Virus record (IMG/VR): IMGVR_UViG_3300037466_003153
Coordinates: 25,253-89,252 of that record
DNA from: a virus
Taxonomy: Duplodnaviria > Heunggongvirae > Uroviricota > Caudoviricetes
Length of the DNA: 64,000 nt
Strand: one strand, 5' to 3'
Each line of letters starts with the position of its first letter. Position 1 is the first letter of the stretch. Below, one piece after another: positions 3,087 to 49,063 of the stretch. The notes below the pieces were generated by a model that had not been told where the DNA came from, did not search any database, and saw only the letters and a program-made list of their open reading frames with translations. The position numbers and the translations under genes were made by a program.

Positions 3087-3266
3087 TTATCCTCCGAAAG
3101 ATTTAATTTTATTTTCCAATTCTTCTTCTTTAGTCTTTTGAATGACAACCGCAGCTTCTAGACGTTTTATTTCTTCCATTCTTTCTAAAATTCTTAATTC
3201 TTGTTCTGATCTAGCGGCTTTTACTTGGAGCAATTGAGATTCAAGTCTTTTCAGTTCTAAATTCAT
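3087..3266 (-). CDS. Small coiled-coil protein (59 aa)
   Basis: ATG at 3266 (reverse) to TAA at 3087. MNLELKRLESQLLQVKAARSEQELRILERMEEIKRLEAAVVIQKTKEEELENKIKSFGG. A late-promoter-like motif lies just upstream. Confidence 0.3.
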   Translation of the reverse strand: MNLELKRLESQLLQVKAARSEQELRILERMEEIKRLEAAVVIQKTKEEELENKIKSFGG

Positions 3267-3274
3267 TTAGTTTA

Positions 3275-3295
3275 CCTATACTAAGTTGTTAAAAT
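3275..3295 (-). promoter_or_regulatory. Late-promoter-like motif variant (TTTTAACAACTTAGTATAGG)
   Basis: Upstream of the 59-aa coiled-coil ORF. Overlaps the stop of 3281..3865. Confidence 0.35.
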
Positions 3296-4209: not shown

Positions 4210-6297
4210 CTATCCTTGCGATTGTGGACCTTGCTGTTGTTGTAATGCGGGATTAGGTAACATGTTTGGATCAACTTTAGGTAAGTTTGGCATAGGAATA
4301 TTTTGTTGCATTCCTGGTGCGTTCATTGTTGGACCACTTGGACCTTGCTGTTGAGTCATTCCAGATTGACCTTGTTCTGGAGTTCCCATCGGACCTTGTT
4401 GTGGATTACCAGGAGGACCACCAGCTTGCGGACCTTGACCTGGTGGAGGGCCAGGAGGTGGTAGAGGTTGTTGTCCTAAAAGTTGTAATAGATTTGGATC
4501 ACCAGTTTGAAGTTGTGTAATGTGAGCTTGAATATGATCTAATGTATTTTGAACAAGCTTTGCATCTTTACGTAAATCTGGATCTTGTAACACTTTACGA
4601 TGTTCCATAATGTGTTCTTTATGGTCATCAATCATTGTTACTGGTGGATTTTCACCATCCATAAGCTTTTCGTTTTCTGCTCTAATAAGATCCAATTCAT
4701 TTTGAAGATCTTCAGTAAGAGCTTCCAATTTACCGGTATTAAGAACTTCAATAAGTTGATTTGGATTCTTAATAATTTGGTATTGCATCATTTGTTGAGC
4801 AAGTTCCATACGTCCAGCAATTGTTTTTGCTAGAGGATTACCAACGTCAACATAAACACGAGTGATGTTAGAAATATCATCACCGACGAATTCCTTAAGT
4901 TCAGTACGGCTAGATTTACCAACGATTGCAAGCATACGTGGAGCTTTTGCGTAATCTTGGAGGATCTTAATAATACCACCACCAACGTCTTCAATAAGTT
5001 GAACGTAGGATTGTTGTAATCCTGACATAAATTGAAGTGCCATTGATTGAACAAGAGCTAGAGCTGCACCAGTTTTAAGAGAAGCTTCTGGATTACCGCG
5101 AGCAACAGAGTTAACACCAGTGAGTGTTTCAGCAACACGTTCTAACATTTGTAGGAAGTCAAAAATTTCTTTAGGTGTATGGCAGAGTTCTAACACTTCT
5201 GGTTTTTCCATACTTTCAATAAGATTCAATCCGCCACCAAGAGAAGAAACGTTCAAATTACTTCCTGGTTTAGACCAGAAATTTTGTACACCTGAAGCGT
5301 TTTGATTGGTGAGAATTGTGCTATAAAGAGTGTTAATTGCTTCTTGAACAGGAAGAACATCAAAGAGAGGTGTATAGCCGTATGGACTTCCAAGAATATC
5401 ACCAGAAGAAATACGGAAAACAGGAATTACACGATATGGCATTCCAATATCTTGGAGAACGATTTCTTCATCCAAGAAAAGCATGTAGCGACCGTTAGGA
5501 AGAGCATCTGTTCTTCTGTGATAAAATTCATATACAGGAACATCATCGGTTTCGTCGTTAAGATTAGTAATCCCAACTCTAAAACGTTCAATATCGCTCT
5601 TTGTTTTTAAACCTTTAATTTTATCTGCAAATTCAGGATATTTTACTGCAAGATCATATTTATTTTTGAATGAACGAACCAACAACCAATCATGGTTTTG
5701 ATGTTCTTTAGTTCCATCCATCACAACATCAAAAGGTGAAAGATTGGAAAATTCAATGTCACCTTCGTAAATAGGACGGTTAGGATCAGGTTCGCCAGTG
5801 GTTTCATCTTCAAAATAATCGTAGATTTCGCCAGTGGTAGCGTTCCATTCCATCTTAATAAAACCAGCGCCGAGAACAACCGCATATTCAACTGCGATTT
5901 TTAAATATTTCTCAAGGCGCTTCTCGCGCATGTAATATTCAAGAATGCCATTTGCGAGTTTACATTGTGAAATTGATTTATAATCTGTATTGACTGCTCT
6001 AGTTTCCATTGTAGGACGATTAGAGGTAGTCATTGTAATAATATGAGAACCAAGATTTCTGAGATGATTAATAGGAAGTTGTACTAATTCGCCTTGTTCG
6101 CCAGAAAAAGAAATTTGATGACCATCAGATACATCATTGTAGTATGCACCGTGATATGCCGCCCACATGGCTTTAAGCTTTTCAAGATAGCCGGAAGATT
6201 CGATATTATTGGACCAAGCTTCGGCTTTAGATAAAAGCACGCTAGCTGTATCCTTACCTTCCTTTGTAGCGAAATAAATATTAGTGGTGTTTTCCAT
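4210..6297 (-). CDS. Probable portal protein (695 aa) with ~115-aa Pro/Gln/Gly-rich disordered C-terminal tail
   Basis: Directly downstream of the large terminase with 27 nt between them. Its size and position fit a portal. The last ~115 residues are PQG-rich low complexity (PPGPPPGQGPQAGGPPGNPQQGP...). Confidence 0.55.
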   Translation of the reverse strand: MENTTNIYFATKEGKDTASVLLSKAEAWSNNIESSGYLEKLKAMWAAYHGAYYNDVSDGHQISFSGEQGELVQLPINHLRNLGSHIITMTTSNRPTMETRAVNTDYKSISQCKLANGILEYYMREKRLEKYLKIAVEYAVVLGAGFIKMEWNATTGEIYDYFEDETTGEPDPNRPIYEGDIEFSNLSPFDVVMDGTKEHQNHDWLLVRSFKNKYDLAVKYPEFADKIKGLKTKSDIERFRVGITNLNDETDDVPVYEFYHRRTDALPNGRYMLFLDEEIVLQDIGMPYRVIPVFRISSGDILGSPYGYTPLFDVLPVQEAINTLYSTILTNQNASGVQNFWSKPGSNLNVSSLGGGLNLIESMEKPEVLELCHTPKEIFDFLQMLERVAETLTGVNSVARGNPEASLKTGAALALVQSMALQFMSGLQQSYVQLIEDVGGGIIKILQDYAKAPRMLAIVGKSSRTELKEFVGDDISNITRVYVDVGNPLAKTIAGRMELAQQMMQYQIIKNPNQLIEVLNTGKLEALTEDLQNELDLIRAENEKLMDGENPPVTMIDDHKEHIMEHRKVLQDPDLRKDAKLVQNTLDHIQAHITQLQTGDPNLLQLLGQQPLPPPGPPPGQGPQAGGPPGNPQQGPMGTPEQGQSGMTQQQGPSGPTMNAPGMQQNIPMPNLPKVDPNMLPNPALQQQQGPQSQG

Positions 6298-11938: not shown

Positions 11939-12080
11939 TTTTCTTGATGTTTACGCTAATAGTGTATATAATTATTAGGGTAAGGGATACAATTTTGGGT
12001 TAGTTCAACAGCAGAATGTGGAGACTTCAGACCTCTAAGATAAGTGTGCAATTCACTTACCCAAAACTTTTTAGGATATT

Positions 12081-18859: not shown

Positions 18860-19095
18860 AACTTTGTAACGATGTTCCTTGCAGTTGTACAGGTGAAGAC
18901 TATTACTATTGTAGCAACACTAATAAAAAACCCAAGAAGTCCGTTAAGAAGAAAAAGAAGAAGGTTAATGTACTTCTTGATGGCGAAACAGTTTCTCAAC
19001 TAGCAAGAGTTGCACAATTAGCTTCTACGGATGTTAATACTGTTGCTAACGTTTTACTTGCTCTTCATGTAGTTCAGAAGTCGGAGAAGAAATAA
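18856..19095 (+). CDS. Hypothetical Lys-rich protein (79 aa)
   Basis: ORF. Confidence 0.4.
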   Translation: MKLCNDVPCSCTGEDYYYCSNTNKKPKKSVKKKKKKVNVLLDGETVSQLARVAQLASTDVNTVANVLLALHVVQKSEKK

Positions 19096-19475
19096 TGATC
19101 GAAGGATGTGGATGTCAACGTGGTGATTTCTGTCCCTTTTGTAACCCACTCGCTTGGTATGACTTAAGTATTTCTTGGAAAGAAGAACGCGACACGCTCA
19201 AGGCCGAAGTTGAAGCCTGTAACGAACGCATCCGTTTACAAGCAGCTAGGCATGTCCGAGAACTCAAGCAAGAGCGCGAACGAAATGCGAGGCTTGTTGA
19301 GGCCGCCCAAGATATTCTCACGCAGAACTATGGGCTACGTAATTTCTGGGCTGGCATGTTTAAGCAATGTCAGACTCATGGTCATTATGCTTATGGTGGT
19401 AACTGGCAAATGAGCGAAGAGTGTCCGTATTGCCGACTACATAGCGCAGCAAAACTTGATGGTGTTAAATCATGA
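19095..19475 (+). CDS. Cys-cluster + coiled-coil protein (126 aa), GC-richer than its surroundings
   Basis: GCGCQRGDFCPFCNP then a coiled-coil segment. Its architecture resembles 41637..41984. Confidence 0.45.
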   Translation: MIEGCGCQRGDFCPFCNPLAWYDLSISWKEERDTLKAEVEACNERIRLQAARHVRELKQERERNARLVEAAQDILTQNYGLRNFWAGMFKQCQTHGHYAYGGNWQMSEECPYCRLHSAAKLDGVKS

Positions 19476-19627
19476 AAGAATTTTTTGTTGGCTTAGCAAT
19501 TATTATTTTACTTAGTACATTGACCAAAGCGAAAGTTCGAGTTGAGGGATTGTTTGGCCTACTTATCTTCAGTGGTGTTTGTTGGGGTTTTGGTAAATTG
19601 TTTTTTATGCTACTCGGTAGGAGCTAA
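19472..19627 (+). CDS. Small membrane protein (51 aa)
   Basis: Hydrophobic throughout. Confidence 0.3.
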   Translation: MKEFFVGLAIIILLSTLTKAKVRVEGLFGLLIFSGVCWGFGKLFFMLLGRS

Positions 19628-20968: not shown

Positions 20969-21053
20969 ATAAGCACAACTGGTAATTAATAGCTATCCCT
21001 GTTTGACCAGTGTGCGCTTCCGCGCAATAGGCGCGGGAGCAGTTAGGATTGAT

Positions 21054-21227
21054 ATGAAACGTTGTAAGGATCATCCACGTTATACAGGTAAAACCCCGCC
21101 GCTTCGTTGCGGAGCTTGCATGGCTATTCACTTCAGCATTGGAGTTATGCGTAAGCCGGTAGCTCCACCTAGCCGACCGCATTCATCTCGCGGTTACACA
21201 CGCAAAGTTAAACACAAAAAAGCTTGA
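21054..21227 (+). CDS. Small basic zinc-ribbon protein (57 aa) in a GC-rich patch
   Basis: MKRCKDHPRYTGKTPPLRCGACMAIHF... A GC hairpin lies upstream. Confidence 0.35.
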   Translation: MKRCKDHPRYTGKTPPLRCGACMAIHFSIGVMRKPVAPPSRPHSSRGYTRKVKHKKA

Positions 21228-21257
21228 CTCAATCTTAAATCACTTTACTCTAAGTGT

Positions 21258-21458
21258 ATGGCAACAATTTTTTGTACTGAACATCCTTACGATGTACCTA
21301 GCCGTACTTGTCTAAAATGTAACGCGATGCAATGGGAACTCTTCGCTCGCGCTGTAGAGAAAGTGAAAGAAAATGAACGAAAGCCAACGGAAGGCAATGA
21401 TCGTTTACCTAGTGAAGCTGCTTGTGAAACATTCGGGCGACATATCCCGAACATCTAA
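21258..21458 (+). CDS. Hypothetical protein (66 aa)
   Basis: ORF. Confidence 0.35.
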   Translation: MATIFCTEHPYDVPSRTCLKCNAMQWELFARAVEKVKENERKPTEGNDRLPSEAACETFGRHIPNI

Positions 21459-21569
21459 AGAAGTAGGTGTGTCTAGAAAGACATTCCTAAAGATGTGTGA
21501 GAAGTACAACATCAATCCTAATATTTATAGGTGTTGATGTTTGCTTATTAGTGTGTTATTATCTTCTAT

Positions 21570-31955: not shown

Positions 31956-32474
31956 ATGAAATACTCGTTAATTGTTATCTGTTTATTGTTAGTAGCTTGT
32001 GGCCGTGGTCCGCAAGGTGAACAGGGTGTCCAAGGTGTCACAGGTGCTACCGGACCTACTGGCGCTAACGGATCTTCGTGTACAGTCCAACAAGCTAATA
32101 ATGGTGCAATTATTTCTTGCACAGATGGTACTAGCGTATTAGTATTAAATGGTAGGGATGGGATTGATGGCACCAACGGAGCCGACGGTAAAGATGGTGT
32201 CGATGGAAAAGACGGAACGAATGGCTTAAACGGTACTAACGGTATCAATGCTCTTCCGACTGCTTATTCGATTAAAGAAATCATTGATCCATGTGGAACA
32301 ACTCCTAACACTTATAATGAAGTGTTGTTGAGATTGGAAAACGGAACTCTAGTTGGTTACTTCGAAGATGGTGGAGCAAGATTTTTAGCAACCATTAGTC
32401 CTGGCTACTACGAAACGACAGATAAGAGTAAATGCAAGTTTACGGTTCATACGGATATGACTGTAACTTGGTAA
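31956..32474 (+). CDS. Collagen-like (Gly-X-Y repeat) lipoprotein (172 aa)
   Basis: Lipobox LLVAC. Two Gly-X-Y triplet runs (GPQGEQGVQGVTGATGPTGANG; GRDGIDGTNGADGKDGVDGKDGTNGLNGTNG). Confidence 0.6.
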   Translation: MKYSLIVICLLLVACGRGPQGEQGVQGVTGATGPTGANGSSCTVQQANNGAIISCTDGTSVLVLNGRDGIDGTNGADGKDGVDGKDGTNGLNGTNGINALPTAYSIKEIIDPCGTTPNTYNEVLLRLENGTLVGYFEDGGARFLATISPGYYETTDKSKCKFTVHTDMTVTW

Positions 32475-32523
32475 GTTACGCTAACGTGTAACAAAAACAA
32501 GGAAGGAAAGACGATGGCAAGGA

Positions 32524-39956: not shown

Positions 39957-40120
39957 GTAGAACCAAAAAGGGTAAGAAACCTCCCGGTTGGGACTATTGG
40001 GGTAAGCGTCCAATAGGTTGGGGAGATCATAGCACCAAGGGTAAACGTACTGGAATTAAACGTGAACGAGCTAAAGCAAAGCAATCTCTAATTAAGGAAA
40101 AGAAGAATGAAACGAAGTAA
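39953..40120 (+). CDS. Small basic protein (55 aa)
   Basis: Lys/Arg-rich. Confidence 0.3.
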   Translation: MSRTKKGKKPPGWDYWGKRPIGWGDHSTKGKRTGIKRERAKAKQSLIKEKKNETK

Positions 40121-40304
40121 AATTGTAAATCTCATTGCTGATTTTCTTTATGAGCTTAATCTTGATGCCGATGAAGCTAAAGAAAAGGCAGATAAACTAC
40201 TTACTTCTATCGAAGATTCAGGTATGGACCCACCTCAATACATGGATAAAGGATGTAGGTGTATGACTTGCTATAGCTATGGATGGGAACCTGAAAATGA
40301 TTAA
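40107..40304 (+). CDS. Hypothetical protein (65 aa)
   Basis: ORF. Confidence 0.4.
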   Translation: MKRSKIVNLIADFLYELNLDADEAKEKADKLLTSIEDSGMDPPQYMDKGCRCMTCYSYGWEPEND

Positions 40305-40743
40305 ATATATCAAAGGCGACTTGTTTGCTACCGATGCTGACATTATCGCTCATGGTGTGAATTGTCAGGGTAAATTCGAATCAGGTATTGCTGGTATCAT
40401 CAAACAAAAATACCCTAAAGCAAGACAATACTATCTTGATAAATACGAAGATGAAGGTTGGAATTTAGGCGATGTCCAATATGTGAAGATTGGTAGTGGT
40501 GATAATTTTATTGCCAACTGTGCCACTCAAGACACATATCTTCCTAGAGGTATATGTCACGTTGACTATAATGCTATTAGACAATGTATGGAAAATGTTA
40601 AACGTGTAGCAAAGTTACATGGGTACACAGTTGCTATACCTAAAATTGGTGCAGGACTTGCTGGTGGTGATTGGAATATTATCGAAAAAATTATTAATAA
40701 AGTATTTGATGATTATCCTATTATCTGTTATTATATAGACTGA
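40279..40743 (+). CDS. Macro-domain protein (ADP-ribose-binding / ADP-ribosyl hydrolase family, 154 aa)
   Basis: GDLFATDADIIAHGVNCQGKFESGIAGII and VAIPKIGAGLAGGDW match the macro-domain signature (GD..xxxDAIVNAAN..GGGV..AI / IAFP.I.tG..G). Confidence 0.65.
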   Translation: MDGNLKMIKYIKGDLFATDADIIAHGVNCQGKFESGIAGIIKQKYPKARQYYLDKYEDEGWNLGDVQYVKIGSGDNFIANCATQDTYLPRGICHVDYNAIRQCMENVKRVAKLHGYTVAIPKIGAGLAGGDWNIIEKIINKVFDDYPIICYYID

Positions 40744-40785
40744 TGTTACAAGTTAGGCAATTGTCACATTCTACGGAGTTAATTT

Positions 40786-41223
40786 ATGAAAGTAGTGATT
40801 AACAAGTGTTATGGCGGCTTTTCAATCTCCCCGGAGGCGGCGCTTTGGTTATATGAACGCGGCTTCAAAGCTGAAGGATTTGTAACGCCAATCGAAAACT
40901 ACTGGAGTGACTTAACGGCTGAGCGGGGCAAGACCTTAGGGTATAAAGCTCAACTGGCACGGTGGCAGGAATATCGTAGCGGAAAACATGCCGGAAGTAG
41001 TTTCATTACCGTTTTTGCTCCCGACGAAAAAAGTGTCCTTAGCACTCGCCCGGATTGTCGCCATGACCCGCTCTTGATTGAGTGTATCGAAACCCTTGGC
41101 GACAAAGCTAACGGGAGGTGCGCAGAGCTAAAGATTATCGAGATTCCAGACGGCGTTGATTACACCATCGATGAGTATGACGGCATGGAGCATATCGCCG
41201 AAAAACATCGGACTTGGGGATGA
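40786..41223 (+). CDS. Hypothetical protein (145 aa), first gene of the GC-rich island
   Basis: GGAG Shine-Dalgarno. GC content is clearly above the phage background. Confidence 0.5.
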   Translation: MKVVINKCYGGFSISPEAALWLYERGFKAEGFVTPIENYWSDLTAERGKTLGYKAQLARWQEYRSGKHAGSSFITVFAPDEKSVLSTRPDCRHDPLLIECIETLGDKANGRCAELKIIEIPDGVDYTIDEYDGMEHIAEKHRTWG

Positions 41224-41258
41224 GACACTTTCACAAAGAGTAACGAGGTATTGAAATC

Positions 41259-41438
41259 ATGGGCCAATCTTTAGACGAGTTTATCGCAAAATACGGCGCT
41301 GTTCAGGTGCTCAAAAAGAACCTGAAAGCCAATATAGACGTGTATTGCGACGGCTGGACCGAAGAACAGAAGGAACAGCTTCTCCGTATGAACATGATTA
41401 TGGTCCGCCAATGCCTAAATGACTTTGGAGCGGAATGA
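41259..41438 (+). CDS. Hypothetical small protein (59 aa), GC-rich island
   Basis: AGGTATTGAAATCATG context. Just under the 60-aa ORF-track cutoff. Confidence 0.35.
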   Translation: MGQSLDEFIAKYGAVQVLKKNLKANIDVYCDGWTEEQKEQLLRMNMIMVRQCLNDFGAE

Positions 41439-41439
41439 G

Positions 41440-41636
41440 ACAAATTAAATTGTAACCTCTGGTGATTCCAGTCCGTTCCAACGGTCAATTAGGGTCACTG
41501 TCGATGAGAGGTCGGCCCAGAGGAAACAAGCCTGCGGGTGCCCTCTACCAACGTATGGGTGGAGTCCGAAAGAGGGTAAATGGAAAGCTCGTACTCCCCA
41601 GCCCGCAGGATTCATTGAGCGCGAATTGAATGGAGT
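41440..41636 (+). ncRNA. Candidate structured noncoding RNA / cis-regulatory RNA (~190 nt, GC-rich, multi-stem)
   Basis: Perfect nested stems: CCTCTGG 41456-62 with CCAGAGG 41517-23; CCTGCGGG 41531-38 with CCCGCAGG 41602-09; CCCTCT 41541-46 with AGAGGG 41571-76; GGAGT 41561-65 with ACTCC 41594-98. Ends in the GGAG Shine-Dalgarno of the next gene. Confidence 0.35.
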
Positions 41637-41984
41637 TTGTTTATGAAAATAGATTGTGGCGATAACTCATGTCACTTTGCAGAAGATAAAAGCGGGATGC
41701 GGACAAATGGTGGCTGTAGGTGCTTGAGTAATGCGGGTTTTAGTCGCTCAGCCATAGCCAGCGCCTACGAGATGCTGCCCGAGATTCTTCGCTTACGAGA
41801 AGAGCGCGACGCACTCCGCGCTGAGCGTGACGACGCCCGCGAAAACTCGAATAGGTTTCAAATGCAGGTTATGCAACTCCGCGCTGCCGGGGACGCTATG
41901 TATAAGGTTTGCGTTGGCGATTCCAGCGAGAGCTTTCTCAAGGTCGCACGCGAGTGGAAAAAAGCCGTTGGAAAACAAGGCTAA
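41637..41984 (+). CDS. Cys-cluster + coiled-coil protein (115 aa), GC-rich island
   Basis: CGDNSCHF...GGCRC then LREERDALRAERDDAREN. Same architecture as 19095..19475. Confidence 0.45.
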   Translation: MFMKIDCGDNSCHFAEDKSGMRTNGGCRCLSNAGFSRSAIASAYEMLPEILRLREERDALRAERDDARENSNRFQMQVMQLRAAGDAMYKVCVGDSSESFLKVAREWKKAVGKQG

Positions 41985-42007
41985 GTAACAGTTCAAAGAA
42001 AGGTAAC

Positions 42008-42808
42008 ATGATTAAATTAAGAGCAAATGGCATTGAAGTTCCGTTTGAAGTATCGAAGTTTCCAGATGGCACCAGTCAACTTTGGAAAGCAGGTAGGTTA
42101 GACTTATTTAGCCATTTTCGTATCAATTTTATTTGGGAGAATGATGAAAGAGAAGTTTTTCATCTTCTAATGCTTATTGATCTAATAAGATCATATAATC
42201 CAGATGCTTTTATTTATCTTGCTATGCCATATTTACCTTATGCGCGTCAAGATAAGCCAGTTGTAAGTGAATTCACATTTGCATTAAATACGTTTGCTAA
42301 CTTGTTGAATTCTAAAAACATCGATCTTATTGAGAGTTTTGACGTTCATAGTAATCAAGCTCATAAACTAATCAAAAACTTTCATTCAATTAGTCCACAA
42401 AATTTTCATAATTGGGTATACTCAAAATTTAAACCAGATTTATTTTTTTATCCCGATCGCGGAGCTGCATATCGTTACGCTGCTGCTATTAATGAAATTA
42501 TGTTATTTGGTAACAAGGTTAGAAACCAAAGCACTGGTGAAATTACAGATTATGAAATTGCCAATCTAAACCACTTTGATATTAAGGATAAAAAGATTCT
42601 TATTATTGATGATATTTGTGATGGTGGTGCTACTTTCATTACCGCTGCTAAAAAGCTAAAAGAACATGGAGCTGGTGAAATTGGCTTGTGTGTATCACAT
42701 GGTTTGTTTTCTAAAGGATTTGATGAGATGAAAGCTGCTGGTATTAGTCAATTCTTCACAACTAATAGTTTGTTGAAAAATTCCGATGGGTACAAGGTTT
42801 GGGAATGA
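42008..42808 (+). CDS. Ribose-phosphate pyrophosphokinase (Prs)-like protein; candidate ADPR-pyrophosphate synthetase (Adps) of an NAD+ reconstitution pathway
   Basis: PRPP-binding loop KILIIDDICDGGATFITAAKKL, a Prs-like N-terminal half and an AGGTAACATG start context. Confidence 0.65.
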   Translation: MIKLRANGIEVPFEVSKFPDGTSQLWKAGRLDLFSHFRINFIWENDEREVFHLLMLIDLIRSYNPDAFIYLAMPYLPYARQDKPVVSEFTFALNTFANLLNSKNIDLIESFDVHSNQAHKLIKNFHSISPQNFHNWVYSKFKPDLFFYPDRGAAYRYAAAINEIMLFGNKVRNQSTGEITDYEIANLNHFDIKDKKILIIDDICDGGATFITAAKKLKEHGAGEIGLCVSHGLFSKGFDEMKAAGISQFFTTNSLLKNSDGYKVWE

Positions 42809-43362
42809 GACAACGTATTTACATGGAACCTGGTTTGAAGTTTGGAAGATGGACTTCCATTCAATTTTCTCATAAGGATTCAAGTAATATTTATTTTTGG
42901 TTGTTTAAATGTGACTGTGGTAATGAAAAAGTTATTAGAGCAATGTCTGTAACTTCAGGAAGATCTAAAAGTTGCGGTTGTTATGATAGAGAATTAAAAT
43001 CTAAAAGACAAATTAAACAACCGGGATATGCAGCTTGTAGAAAAGTATATAATACATACAAACATCATGCCGAACGTAGGAATTTGTGTTTTGAATTGAC
43101 GTTTGAAGAGTTTAAGAAATTAGGAGAAACTAATTGTTATATTTGTGGTATTGAACCTAAACAATTAGTTGCTATTGATAAATCAGGAATAACAACAAAT
43201 TGGTCATATAATGGTATTGATAGAGAAGATAATACCAAAGGTTATTCCTTGAATAATTGTAGAGCATGTTGTAAAATATGTAATGTAGCCAAAAATGACT
43301 TGACTGAGGAAGAATTCAAAAACTGGTTGAATCGTATTGTAACCTTTAATAAGGAAATGTAA
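42799..43362 (+). CDS. HNH endonuclease (homing-endonuclease-like) inserted between the Prs-like and NAMPT-like genes
   Basis: CYICG...NGIDREDNTKGY...CCKICN. Confidence 0.5.
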   Translation: MGMRQRIYMEPGLKFGRWTSIQFSHKDSSNIYFWLFKCDCGNEKVIRAMSVTSGRSKSCGCYDRELKSKRQIKQPGYAACRKVYNTYKHHAERRNLCFELTFEEFKKLGETNCYICGIEPKQLVAIDKSGITTNWSYNGIDREDNTKGYSLNNCRACCKICNVAKNDLTEEEFKNWLNRIVTFNKEM

Positions 43363-48094: not shown

Positions 48095-48669
48095 TGAAAC
48101 GTAGTGATAGTGTTACTAAAATTGTTCCAGCACTTCTCAAAGCTCAAAAGCTTATGGGTGGTGCAACTAAAGGTGCTGCTAATCCATATTTCAAGAGTAA
48201 ATATGCCGATTATGGTGCTGTTCTTGAAGCATGTAAGGATTTGCTTAACGATAACGGAATTGCAATTCTTCAACCACATACATTCCATGATGGTAAGAAT
48301 TTCGTAGAAACAACTCTTATTCATGAATCTGGTGAATATCTCACTTCAGAAACAGAAGTTGTATGTTCAAAGCAAAATGATCCACAGGCGTTAGGATCTG
48401 CTATTACTTATGCACGTCGCTATGGTTTGCAATCTCTACTCGCAATGCCAGCCGAAGATGACGACGGTGAAAAAGCAATGGGACGCACTGCAGCTCCTAA
48501 GCAAGAAGCTCCAAAGGCAGCTGCACCAGCAGCTAAGCCAGCGCAAGCTCCTGCAGCAAAAGTAGCAACAACTCCAGCAACAAAGTCTAGCTTTAAAGCA
48601 GCTACACCTGCAGCTCCAGCAACTACCACTGCTAAACCAGCTGGCGCTAATGATTTGAATTGGGATTAA
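48094..48669 (+). CDS. erf: ERF-family single-strand annealing protein with Ala/Pro-rich C-terminal tail
   Basis: ALLKAQKLM...ANPYFKSKYADYGAVLEA matches the ERF signature (NPxFKSKYAdL). Confidence 0.6.
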   Translation: MKRSDSVTKIVPALLKAQKLMGGATKGAANPYFKSKYADYGAVLEACKDLLNDNGIAILQPHTFHDGKNFVETTLIHESGEYLTSETEVVCSKQNDPQALGSAITYARRYGLQSLLAMPAEDDDGEKAMGRTAAPKQEAPKAAAPAAKPAQAPAAKVATTPATKSSFKAATPAAPATTTAKPAGANDLNWD

Positions 48670-48676
48670 ATAAAAT

Positions 48677-49063
48677 ATGATGAAACCAGAAACAACCACA
48701 CCTGCTAGCGAACCAACGGGAAGCGTAACTGTAGCTAATCCTGAAGTAGAACAAACTCCAGAAGTACAAGCTGCAATGTTCTTGCACTCAGCATTGCCAA
48801 TGTTCCGTAATCAGCTTGATAAGCTAACAGGAACTCAAGCTAAGCGTGTTCTCTCTGCTCTAATGGAAGCTCCACTAGAAAAGGAAACACCAGGATTTAC
48901 AACTAGGGAAGCAGACGATCTATTCGCACTAGGTCTTATGATTTCCAATGCAAAGTTTATCTTATTCAACGTAGCTCTTAAAGATAAAGAAATTACGGAT
49001 AAGGTAGAAGAAGAAGCTGCACAAGCTGGCGCGGAAGCAGCTGCTAACACTCAGGGAGAATAA
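48677..49063 (+). CDS. Hypothetical protein (128 aa)
   Basis: ORF. Possibly a recombination accessory or SSB-like protein, unverified. Confidence 0.4.
   Translation: MMKPETTTPASEPTGSVTVANPEVEQTPEVQAAMFLHSALPMFRNQLDKLTGTQAKRVLSALMEAPLEKETPGFTTREADDLFALGLMISNAKFILFNVALKDKEITDKVEEEAAQAGAEAAANTQGE

Follow-up and report, generated by a model that had tools for sequence, protein, structure and literature searches.

We analyzed a 64-kb window of a tailed-phage genome (64,000 nt of the IMG/VR record IMGVR_UViG_3300037466_003153; positions are those of this window), in which a GC-rich, 1.25-kb block of three small open reading frames (ORF1-ORF3), at ~40754-42007, lies between a macro-domain gene and a gene resembling ribose-phosphate pyrophosphokinase (prs-like). 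The gap between ORF2 and ORF3, 41439-41642, carries the putative RNA element that is the main subject of this study. The block is, judging from its sequence, a single contiguous, recent and un-ameliorated import from an unrelated lineage of uncultured phages with 48-52% GC. The explanation that we favor, with a probability of about 0.45, is that the imported block contains a self-contained RNA module that would act, in the form of a stable, processed RNA or of a cis element of generic type, via a core made of two helices (P1 and P2) and the AAACAA junction between them. That an RNA fold under selection exists at all we consider probable.

The change in base composition is abrupt. Between 40786 and 41990, the sequence has ~50% GC, and the flanks on both sides have 30-37%; in 200-nt windows, the values are 0.47-0.575 across 40800-41999 versus 0.28-0.40 on either side, with a return to 0.32 from position 42000 on. 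The bin 41501-42000 (0.522) is the GC maximum of the whole window, in which the background is 0.30-0.40. A preliminary description of this locus had proposed a GC-rich foreign island, quoting a GC-rich run that is indeed present at ~40813-40843, and this proposal is borne out by the jump in composition and by the spacers of the block.

The spacers contain four motifs, A to D (Table 1), with the general forms TAGGCAAYTGTMAC for A, GACAYTTTCACA...GTAAC for B, GACAA(A)TT.AA...TGTAAC for C and ...TTCAAAG....GTAAC for D. Motif A occurs once in the window. The uncultured phage contigs L100, L230 and L263-L265, of 48-52% GC and from IMG/VR and Logan, carry the identical motif, and there it always lies between a stop codon and the next ribosome-binding site (RBS). 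Motif B is also present in L100 (IMGVR_UViG_3300037313_001456), L230, L231 and L264/L265. Among 3.3 Mb of unrelated loci, the loose form of motif A had three matches, and that of motif B had none. A 28-nt stretch that includes motif C is 100% identical to positions 3682-3709 of L079 (IMGVR_UViG_3300037466_001855). The counterparts of motif D in L100 (TAACTATTCAAAGGGACGTAACATG), L079 (GTGACAATTCAAAGATTTGTAAC) and L230/L264 (GACAATTCAAAG...) are similar to it. The order A-B-C-D in the window (40754, 41224, 41439 and 41989) is repeated in L230 (777/986/1497), L264 (829/409/146), L265 (6014/6434/6697), L100 (5606/5388) and L079 (3204/3686/4550). In the 48-52% GC lineage, the motifs begin at, or overlap, the preceding stop codon, and they bracket each unit of the window block, L079, L100, L230, L231 and L263-L265. 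Because motifs of the donor lineage lie in every one of the block's four spacers, and in the same order, the block is likely to have arrived in one piece. Its foreign origin is clear.

It should be noted that no DNA-level likeness to the island was found among cultured phages, and that neither a close relative of the window phage nor a copy of the locus devoid of the block was found in INPHARED or IMG/VR. The donor lineage can be placed among uncultured phages of 48-52% GC and matched no cultured group: L079 gave 0 blastn matches, and L100 gave only remote ones, with at most 31% protein identity.

The motifs themselves could be promoters specific to the phage, operators of translation or linkers for recombination. 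The PeSLs of T4-type phages, which consist of an early sigma-70 promoter and a stem-loop/terminator, are short conserved intergenic motifs on either side of small, variable genes of hyperplastic regions, and they seem to allow entire gene cassettes to pass from one phage genome to another (Arbiol et al. 2010, PMC2839356; Comeau et al. 2014, PMC4122927). The A-D motifs similarly bracket every unit of the block, RNA included, and have the same apparent role; by this analogy, recombination may occur at them. They differ from PeSLs in sequence, in their fixed A-B-C-D order, in that one of the "cassettes" is an RNA and not an ORF, and in the lack of a sigma-70 consensus above background. Promoter-like sites in 40200-42400 number 4, compared to 4.9 expected, and none of them is located at a spacer motif; terminator-like sites number 0 in the same region.

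The gap between ORF2 and ORF3 spans 204 nt up to the ATG of ORF3, or 198 nt up to an alternative TTG, and it is closed by the Shine-Dalgarno (SD) sequence GGAG, 7 nt ahead of the ATG. As had been described, it ends at an RBS and is non-coding: there are stop codons in all frames across it, the L079 element contains no ORF of 40 aa or longer on either strand, and a six-frame protein query of the element returned no database protein match, with no gene called over any homologue. A small protein gene in the gap was rejected on these grounds. An intron was rejected as well, as the fold includes neither the upstream stop codon nor the downstream RBS and ATG, and the putative exons would have no relation to each other. 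The element is tightly packed: 12-18 nt separate it from the stop codon upstream, and 10-24 nt from the RBS downstream. Its left flank is motif C or B, and its right flank is the second half of an ordinary spacer. One gene further on in L079, at 4288-4318, there is an undivided spacer, TGAGACAATTGAATGGAGTTTGTTTTATG, without the RNA; therefore, the RNA sits in the position of a cassette.

The predicted fold consists of two domains (Table 1). In domain 1, the outer helix is followed by an AA/AA internal loop and by P1, which encloses a 54-nt variable interior with two hairpins. In domain 2, the conserved UCCGA is on the 3' side of helix P3, and the domain ends either in a small 3' hairpin or in an alternative GGAGU/ACUCC pairing. 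The U-rich spacer of the 3' tail is complementary to GACAAAU of motif C, and this long-range pairing is seen in minimum free energy (MFE) folds; the GACAA part is able to pair with the U-rich spacer between the SD and the AUG, leaving the SD in a loop. All four stems listed in the preliminary description are present, namely, CCTCTGG/CCAGAGG and CCTGCGGG/CCCGCAGG at the positions of P1 and P2, CCCTCT (41541-46) with AGAGGG (41572-77), and GGAGT (41562-66) with ACTCC (41594-98).

Table 1. Features of the imported block, of the RNA element within it and of the two adjacent genes
Feature	Position	Strand	Description
Macro-domain gene	40279-40743 (stop 40741-40743)		Left neighbor of the block; Pfam Macro, E 3.9e-9
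Motif A	40754..40770	+	TAGGCAATTGTCACATT; left block edge, just past the macro gene stop
ORF1	40786..41223	+	145 aa; phrog_16527
Motif B	41222..41244	+	GAGACACTTTCACAAAGAGTAAC; overlaps the TGA stop of ORF1
ORF2	41259..41438	+	59 aa; small conserved protein
Motif C	41439..41456	+	GACAAATTAAATTGTAAC; 3' end is the outer part of helix P1
RNA domain 1	41450..41529	+	Closed by the outer helix and P1; inverted repeat I5
Outer helix	41450-53 with 41526-29		UUGU/ACAA
P1	41456-62 with 41517-23		CCUCUGG/CCAGAGG
AAACAA junction	41524..41529	+	Joins the domains; within the 22-nt block AGAGGAAACAAGCCUGCGGGUG, invariant in three loci
RNA domain 2	41530..41609	+	P2, P3 and UCCGA; inverted repeat I8
P2	41531-38 with 41602-09		CCUGCGGG/CCCGCAGG
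P3	41539-45 with 41573-79		UGCCCUC/GAGGGUA
UCCGA	41566-70		Conserved
3' tail	41610..41642	+	Conserved AUUCAUUGA, weak AU-rich hairpin, SD GGAG at 41632-35, U-rich spacer
ORF3	41643..41984	+	113 aa from ATG; 115 aa from TTG 41637
Motif D	41985..42007	+	GTAACAGTTCAAAGAAAGGTAAC; right block edge, abuts the prs-like ATG at 42008
prs-like gene	42008-42808		Right neighbor of the block; phrog_619, E 1.7e-61

The sequence of the window alone does not justify calling this element highly structured. Compared to shuffles, the MFE of the 205-nt element corresponds to z = -1.47 (9 of 200 shuffles as good) and that of the 167-nt core to z = -1.87 to -1.96, values barely above chance; 9% of dinucleotide shuffles contain two or more perfect stems of at least 7 bp, among them one of at least 8 bp. 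The claim holds only through the comparison with L079 and L100. For the L100 element, z lies between -4.7 and -4.95, and none of 100 and none of 300 shuffles folds as well. The folding energy is better for the sense strand than for the antisense strand in the three loci (-59.3 vs -57.7, -83.1 vs -76.6 and -119.0 vs -108.4 kcal/mol), because of G-U pairs.

Across the databases searched (for the metagenome records, among the matches listed), copies of the element were found in three independent loci only: the window, L079 and L100. L079 and L104 are one contig, and L262, obtained from a second JGI sample, has the same sequence as L079 throughout the element. A comparison of the window with L079 shows perfect identity at both edges of the element (28 nt on the 5' side and 45 nt on the 3' side), 77% identity across domain 2 and wholly different interiors of domain 1 (54 vs 88 nt). 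The window and L100 share the 5' strand of P1, CYAGAGG-AAACAA-GCCUGCGGG-UG, UCCGA, the 3' strand CCCGCAGG and AUUCAUUGA, and nothing else; the L100 interiors, of 43 and 100 nt, have no relation to those of the window. The window and L079 have CCUCUGG/CCAGAGG as P1, and L100 has CCUCUAG/CUAGAGG, i.e., one compensatory change of G-C to A-U; the helix is extended by UGU/ACA in all three loci. P2 is invariant in four copies (window, L079 and two in L100, designated L100a and L100b), with interiors of 62, 58, 100 and 45 nt. P3 reads UGCCCUC/GAGGGUA in the window, UGCCCU/GGGGUA in L079 and UGACU/GGUCA in L100a, which amounts to one compensatory and two one-sided changes. In a scaffold anchored by hand, 96% of the cells are paired, compared to 38-50% with slid partners, and there are two compensatory pairs (in P1 and P3) and three one-sided changes. 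RNAalifold recovered the extended P1 and P2 from the unedited MAFFT alignment, in which the non-homologous interiors of the element are misaligned. At the level of sequence, the helices are thus conserved with two compensatory changes.

In L100, domain 2 is tandemly duplicated. The second, shorter copy, at 5070-5190 on the minus strand, has the same P2 arms around its 45-nt interior; a hairpin of 9 bp, UUAACAGGG/CCUUGUUAA, stands before it where domain 1 would be, and it is followed directly by AUUCAUUGAAGGAG and a start codon, with AUUCAUUGA again present 3' of the domain. The comparison suggests that the gap most likely gives rise to a folded sense-strand RNA, as the preliminary description had supposed; the riboswitch with a ligand that it also envisaged did not find support.

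Several observations weigh against a functional RNA module of this kind. The folds of the window and L079 are not significant singly (z = -1.2 to -2.0). P2 shows no variation and, accordingly, has no pairing information of its own. The covariation is that of three sequences in a hand-chosen alignment, and the two compensatory pairs were reached in 51 of 500 shuffles and the covariation score in 28 of 500. The identity of the conserved blocks could partly stem from recent mosaic recombination rather than from selection. Finally, the genes downstream of the element in all three loci encode proteins with cysteine (Cys) clusters and/or coiled coils that contain an ERDALRAE-like motif. The element could, then, be a decayed cassette remnant or an expanded spacer devoid of function, with chance GC-rich stems and with its likeness to L079 and L100 due to recent ancestry, as the ordinary single-sequence statistics and the finding of only three loci after very large searches would suggest. 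We consider this rather unlikely. The distant L100 keeps precisely the complementary strands of P1, P2 and P3 along with the junction, the rest being non-homologous; the sole difference in P1 is compensatory; and the L100 element is both an outlier in folding energy and a carrier of a duplicated domain.

The downstream genes point to another possibility, a cis-regulatory 5' leader of the Cys/coiled-coil gene ORF3 that would bind a protein or a metabolite and control translation or mRNA stability, including a riboswitch for some other ligand. At each of the three loci, a distance of 10-24 nt separates the end of the element from the SD of a small gene for an (E)ERDALRAE coiled-coil protein; the tandem domain 2 of L100 is reminiscent of tandem aptamers or operators; MFE folds pair the 5' spacer motif with the SD-AUG spacer (window and L079) or with the SD itself (L100); and domain 2 has the form of a multi-helix junction, the core of which is invariant. 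However, the downstream proteins are not orthologous: BLASTP finds only an 11-residue coiled-coil motif in common, of the ERDALRAE type (E 0.005), the N-terminal Cys motifs differ, and the L079 protein lacks one. Genes for ERDxLRAE coiled-coil proteins are common in these phages and mostly lack the RNA (e.g., the 176-aa gene of L231), homologues of the N-terminal domain of ORF3 have no upstream gap, no anti-SD or terminator alternative is conserved (ACUCC of the window is missing in L079), and no riboswitch of Rfam matches. The proteins encoded upstream of the element are unrelated among the loci as well. The variation of both neighboring genes from locus to locus suggests, on sequence grounds, that the element is not the leader of one particular gene, and we regard a leader of ORF3 as somewhat unlikely.

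A more specific version of the riboswitch idea was that the element responds to phosphoribosyl pyrophosphate (PRPP)/ppGpp (ykkC subtype 2), NAD+ or ADP-ribose (ADPR) and serves the macro, prs-like and NAMPT-like genes nearby. The prs-like gene is located 370 nt downstream, the macro-domain gene adjoins the block, and the prs-like and NAMPT-like genes are arranged in the order of NARP1, the phage operon for NAD+ reconstitution by Adps and Namat (bioRxiv 10.1101/2024.02.11.579819), with the macro-domain gene upstream of the pair. We give this idea hardly any credence. No Rfam model matched at E<=10, even with the laxest filters; neither the element nor the spacers beside it are native to the window phage; the gene that it directly precedes is ORF3 and not prs; and no macro, prs, NAMPT or other NAD-related gene is present at the L079 and L100 loci. 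The L079 neighborhood is composed of small hypothetical genes and a gene for a 175-aa protein of the tyrosine-recombinase family 650 nt downstream, and that of L100 of small hypothetical genes, Xre repressors, an exonuclease and RecT. The association with NAD genes is unique to the window, and because the whole block is imported, this neighborhood is an accident of insertion. The comparison thus corrects a tempting mis-annotation, that of a riboswitch for the neighboring NAD/PRPP genes; context inside a freshly imported island is no evidence of function.

The same observations that describe a cassette can also be read at the level of DNA, with the P1 and P2 repeats as recombination joints or single-stranded DNA hairpins for a recombinase that exchanges cassettes, by analogy with integron attC sites or the PeSL-type linkers of T4-like phages, and with no part played by the RNA. 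The conserved ends around a center that varies in sequence and length are similar to integron attC sites, the interiors are swapped wholesale, the surrounding spacers look like recombination linkers, and the L079 copy has the tyrosine-recombinase-family gene downstream. In addition, the Logan contig L236 (SRR35106392), which is an independent assembly of the same phage from a second sample and is identical at 3181-3284 to window positions 41439-41542, stops inside the RNA element, right after the invariant block ...AAGCCTGCGGGTGCC (GCCTGCGGGTGCC); such a break would be expected if sequences sharing this block coexist in the sample and split the assembly graph. A DNA-level role nevertheless appears improbable. 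No integrase is found near the window or L100 copies, so that an IntI-type enzyme is missing at two of three copies, and the arms CCTCTGG/CCAGAGG and CCTGCGGG/CCCGCAGG are not RYYYAAC/GTTRRRY, i.e., the R''/R' core sites of attC are lacking. The better fold of the sense strand, due to G-U pairs, fits an RNA or one DNA strand and not duplex recognition; the unpaired AAACAA, UG and UCCGA are conserved too; and P3, in the "variable center", covaries. A single GTTAGGC is present at 40751-40757, where the donors have ATTAGGC, TTTAGGC or AATAGGC.

Under the explanation that we favor, i.e., the import of a block with a self-contained RNA module, an AT-rich phage would have received, between its macro-domain gene and its prs-like gene, a segment of 48-52% GC phage DNA in which small genes are strung together by the fixed spacers A, B, C and D. 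The module would most likely be transcribed on the sense strand together with the flanking genes, as part of a polycistronic RNA, because there is no sigma-70 promoter or terminator nearby and the genes are packed tightly from stop codon to RBS. It would fold as two domains joined by AAACAA, closed by P1 and P2, respectively, with P3 and UCCGA inside domain 2. It would also be a cassette in its own right, located between two halves of a spacer, with the closing strands kept and the interiors and neighboring genes exchanged. Because neighbors and interiors are swapped while the closing strands are kept, and because one phage has domain 2 twice, we infer that the module acts at the RNA level whatever gene follows; as a generic cis element, it could affect transcript stability, processing or read-through.

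A bolder alternative holds that the element is the first of a new class of phage non-coding RNAs that moves as its own cassette between unrelated phages and acts in trans, or in cis in a generic manner, through the P1-AAACAA-P2 core, as a decoy or sponge for a host factor or a defense component, as an element directed at polymerase or ribosome, or as an aptamer; here, it would have landed in an anti-defense neighborhood (the macro domain and the NARP1-like Adps/Namat pair). We think such a class unlikely.

Attempts to enlarge the set of copies were extensive. Exact and gapped pattern scans of IMG/VR returned only L079 (=L104) and L100, in addition to unrelated coding matches. A scan of 241 million metagenome records with AAGCCTGCGGGN{40,70}GCCCGCAGG gave at least 120 matches, and those listed are unrelated GC-rich sequences. 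The invariant core 18-mer, common to all three copies, had 21 matches among one genome for each of 185,579 species, all of them unrelated, and so the possibilities of a host-gene fragment and of an attP core were rejected. Against cultured phages and plasmids, blastn at E<=10 yielded 0 matches to the element; contigs with homologues of ORF2, ORF3 or the L079 downstream protein contained no further copy (L262 repeats L079); and a helix-linker-helix descriptor applied to 1.78 Mb of loci recovered the known copies and random GC-rich matches only.

Comparison with known RNA families was similarly negative. With short inputs (281-601 nt: window 41400-41680, L079 3600-4000 and L100 4900-5500) and the laxest filters, none of the 4227 models of Rfam 15 matched the element at E<=10, and the riboswitch models had no match in window 40000-42800 either; this collection covers ykkC-yxkD (RF00442 and its subtypes), NAD+-I/II, ribozymes, pRNA, 6S, tmRNA, RNase P and motifs from phages and metagenomes. 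At the gathering score, the whole window had no match; the only others were to eukaryotic/archaeal C/D-box snoRNA models, at chance level and far below that score, and to CRISPR-DR10. ARAGORN found no tRNA- or tmRNA-like gene in 40000-43000, and the lack of a cloverleaf there led us to reject a tRNA-like element. A hammerhead ribozyme was also rejected: CUGAUGA is present in domain 1 of L100 only, in the wrong topology, L079 has none, the window has UCGAUGA, and there is no Rfam match. The element is an uncatalogued and very rare motif of a familiar general kind.

This general likeness extends to several known systems, and the element is a member of none of them. As with the riboswitch aptamers of ykkC 2a/2b, NAD+-I (nadA) and NAD+-II (pnuC), several helices meet in a compact junction, its core is invariant, it lies 5' of a gene, and one homologue is tandem; unlike them, it has no covariance-model match, no conserved association with a metabolic gene and no expression platform. 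The put sites of phage HK022, studied by King, Weisberg and colleagues, are reportedly cis-acting two-stem RNAs that make RNA polymerase resistant to terminators; they are ~65-70 nt long and lie just downstream of early promoters. From this description, the resemblance is in phage-borne, self-contained two-domain stems on the sense strand of an operon, with conserved stem sequence, which would act whatever genes follow; however, the element is 160-310 nt long, has branched domains, lies mid-operon and has no terminator found downstream. The intercistronic RNase III/stabilizer sites of T7-like phages are single irregular hairpins of ~60 nt. They are also located between small genes of a polycistronic transcript, are conserved as structures and are independent of their neighbors, whereas the element has two branched domains and an invariant single-stranded junction.

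If the fold is real and functional, an uncatalogued structured RNA would be added to the small set known in phages, and RNA modules, not ORFs alone, would appear to be shuffled as cassettes via spacer motifs across base compositions. The A-B-C-D series of the donor lineage provides a testable example of linker-mediated modular exchange. Given the small number of copies, three, we regard the significance at present as modest, the yield being a credible new RNA motif of phages together with a clean case of import mediated by linkers.

The three small ORFs had been described correctly as to number and size (145, 59 and 115 aa), and each has homologues elsewhere. ORF1 matches phrog_16527 (E 5e-29), with 0 matches in Pfam and NCBIfam, and has relatives in 71 IMG/VR loci (29-44% identity) as well as in nine cultured phages of very different hosts, where it is always annotated as hypothetical; its single-sequence AlphaFold model is unusable (pLDDT 40). 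The CRISPR-DR10 match is located within ORF1, in antisense orientation (40819-40855, minus strand; 18.7 bits, E 0.9), and is judged to be due to chance, as it is a single copy with no array inside a gene. ORF2 is 81% identical to its homologue P0002 in the donor lineage (Logan contigs L230-L233) and 58% identical to P0003 (metagenome-assembled (MAG) contigs from NCBI); at these loci, short spacers without the RNA element follow. ORF3 consists of an N-terminal Cys motif, CGDNSCHF...GGCRC, and a coiled coil, and has no significant sequence match in Pfam, NCBIfam or PDB. Most of its 41 database homologues match the N-terminal ~30 residues only, and those of this domain found elsewhere lack the RNA upstream; 73 nt of ORF3 (41814-41886) are 90% identical to the gene 3' of the RNA in L079. 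The gap after one ORF3 homologue, P0015 (L270, 2690-2912), contains a tRNA-like 3' half, GGUUCGAUUCCGGCUCAUCA, and then a long GC-rich terminator-like hairpin, and is unrelated to the RNA element.

The preliminary description had also noted that the architecture of ORF3 recurs at 19095-19475. A 126-aa protein is encoded there on the plus strand, with N- and C-terminal Cys pairs flanking an EERDTLKAE coiled coil, and the same general build is seen in small proteins of the donor lineage (121 aa in L100, 142 aa in L231). The resemblance to ORF3 is limited to the EERDxLxAE stretch (8/19 identities, pairwise E 0.01) and the Cys residues, and homology is not demonstrable. Mildly raised GC values are found in the bins 19001-19500 (0.44), 21001-21500 (0.45), 32001-32500 (0.43) and 48501-49000 (0.44); spacer motifs of the donor type are present neither at 19095-19475 nor in these bins, which may represent older, partly ameliorated imports.

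The only ARAGORN call in the window is a tRNA-SeC with the anticodon TCA (a UGA reader) at 11994-12067 on the plus strand. Rfam, at the gathering score, reports no tRNA anywhere in the window, including this site; the call is a false positive unless the tRNA is a divergent one of the suppressor type. Downstream of the block, a 187-aa HNH/endonuclease VII-like gene (42799-43362, plus strand; phrog_374, E 1.7e-19, and phrog_1035, E 1.5e-15) is located between the prs-like and NAMPT-like genes, with a 10-nt overlap with the end of the prs-like gene. In the Aeromonas phage APT65, the prs-like and NAMPT-like genes adjoin directly, with nothing between them, and the HNH gene of the window looks like a homing-endonuclease insertion into the NARP1-like (Adps/Namat) operon.

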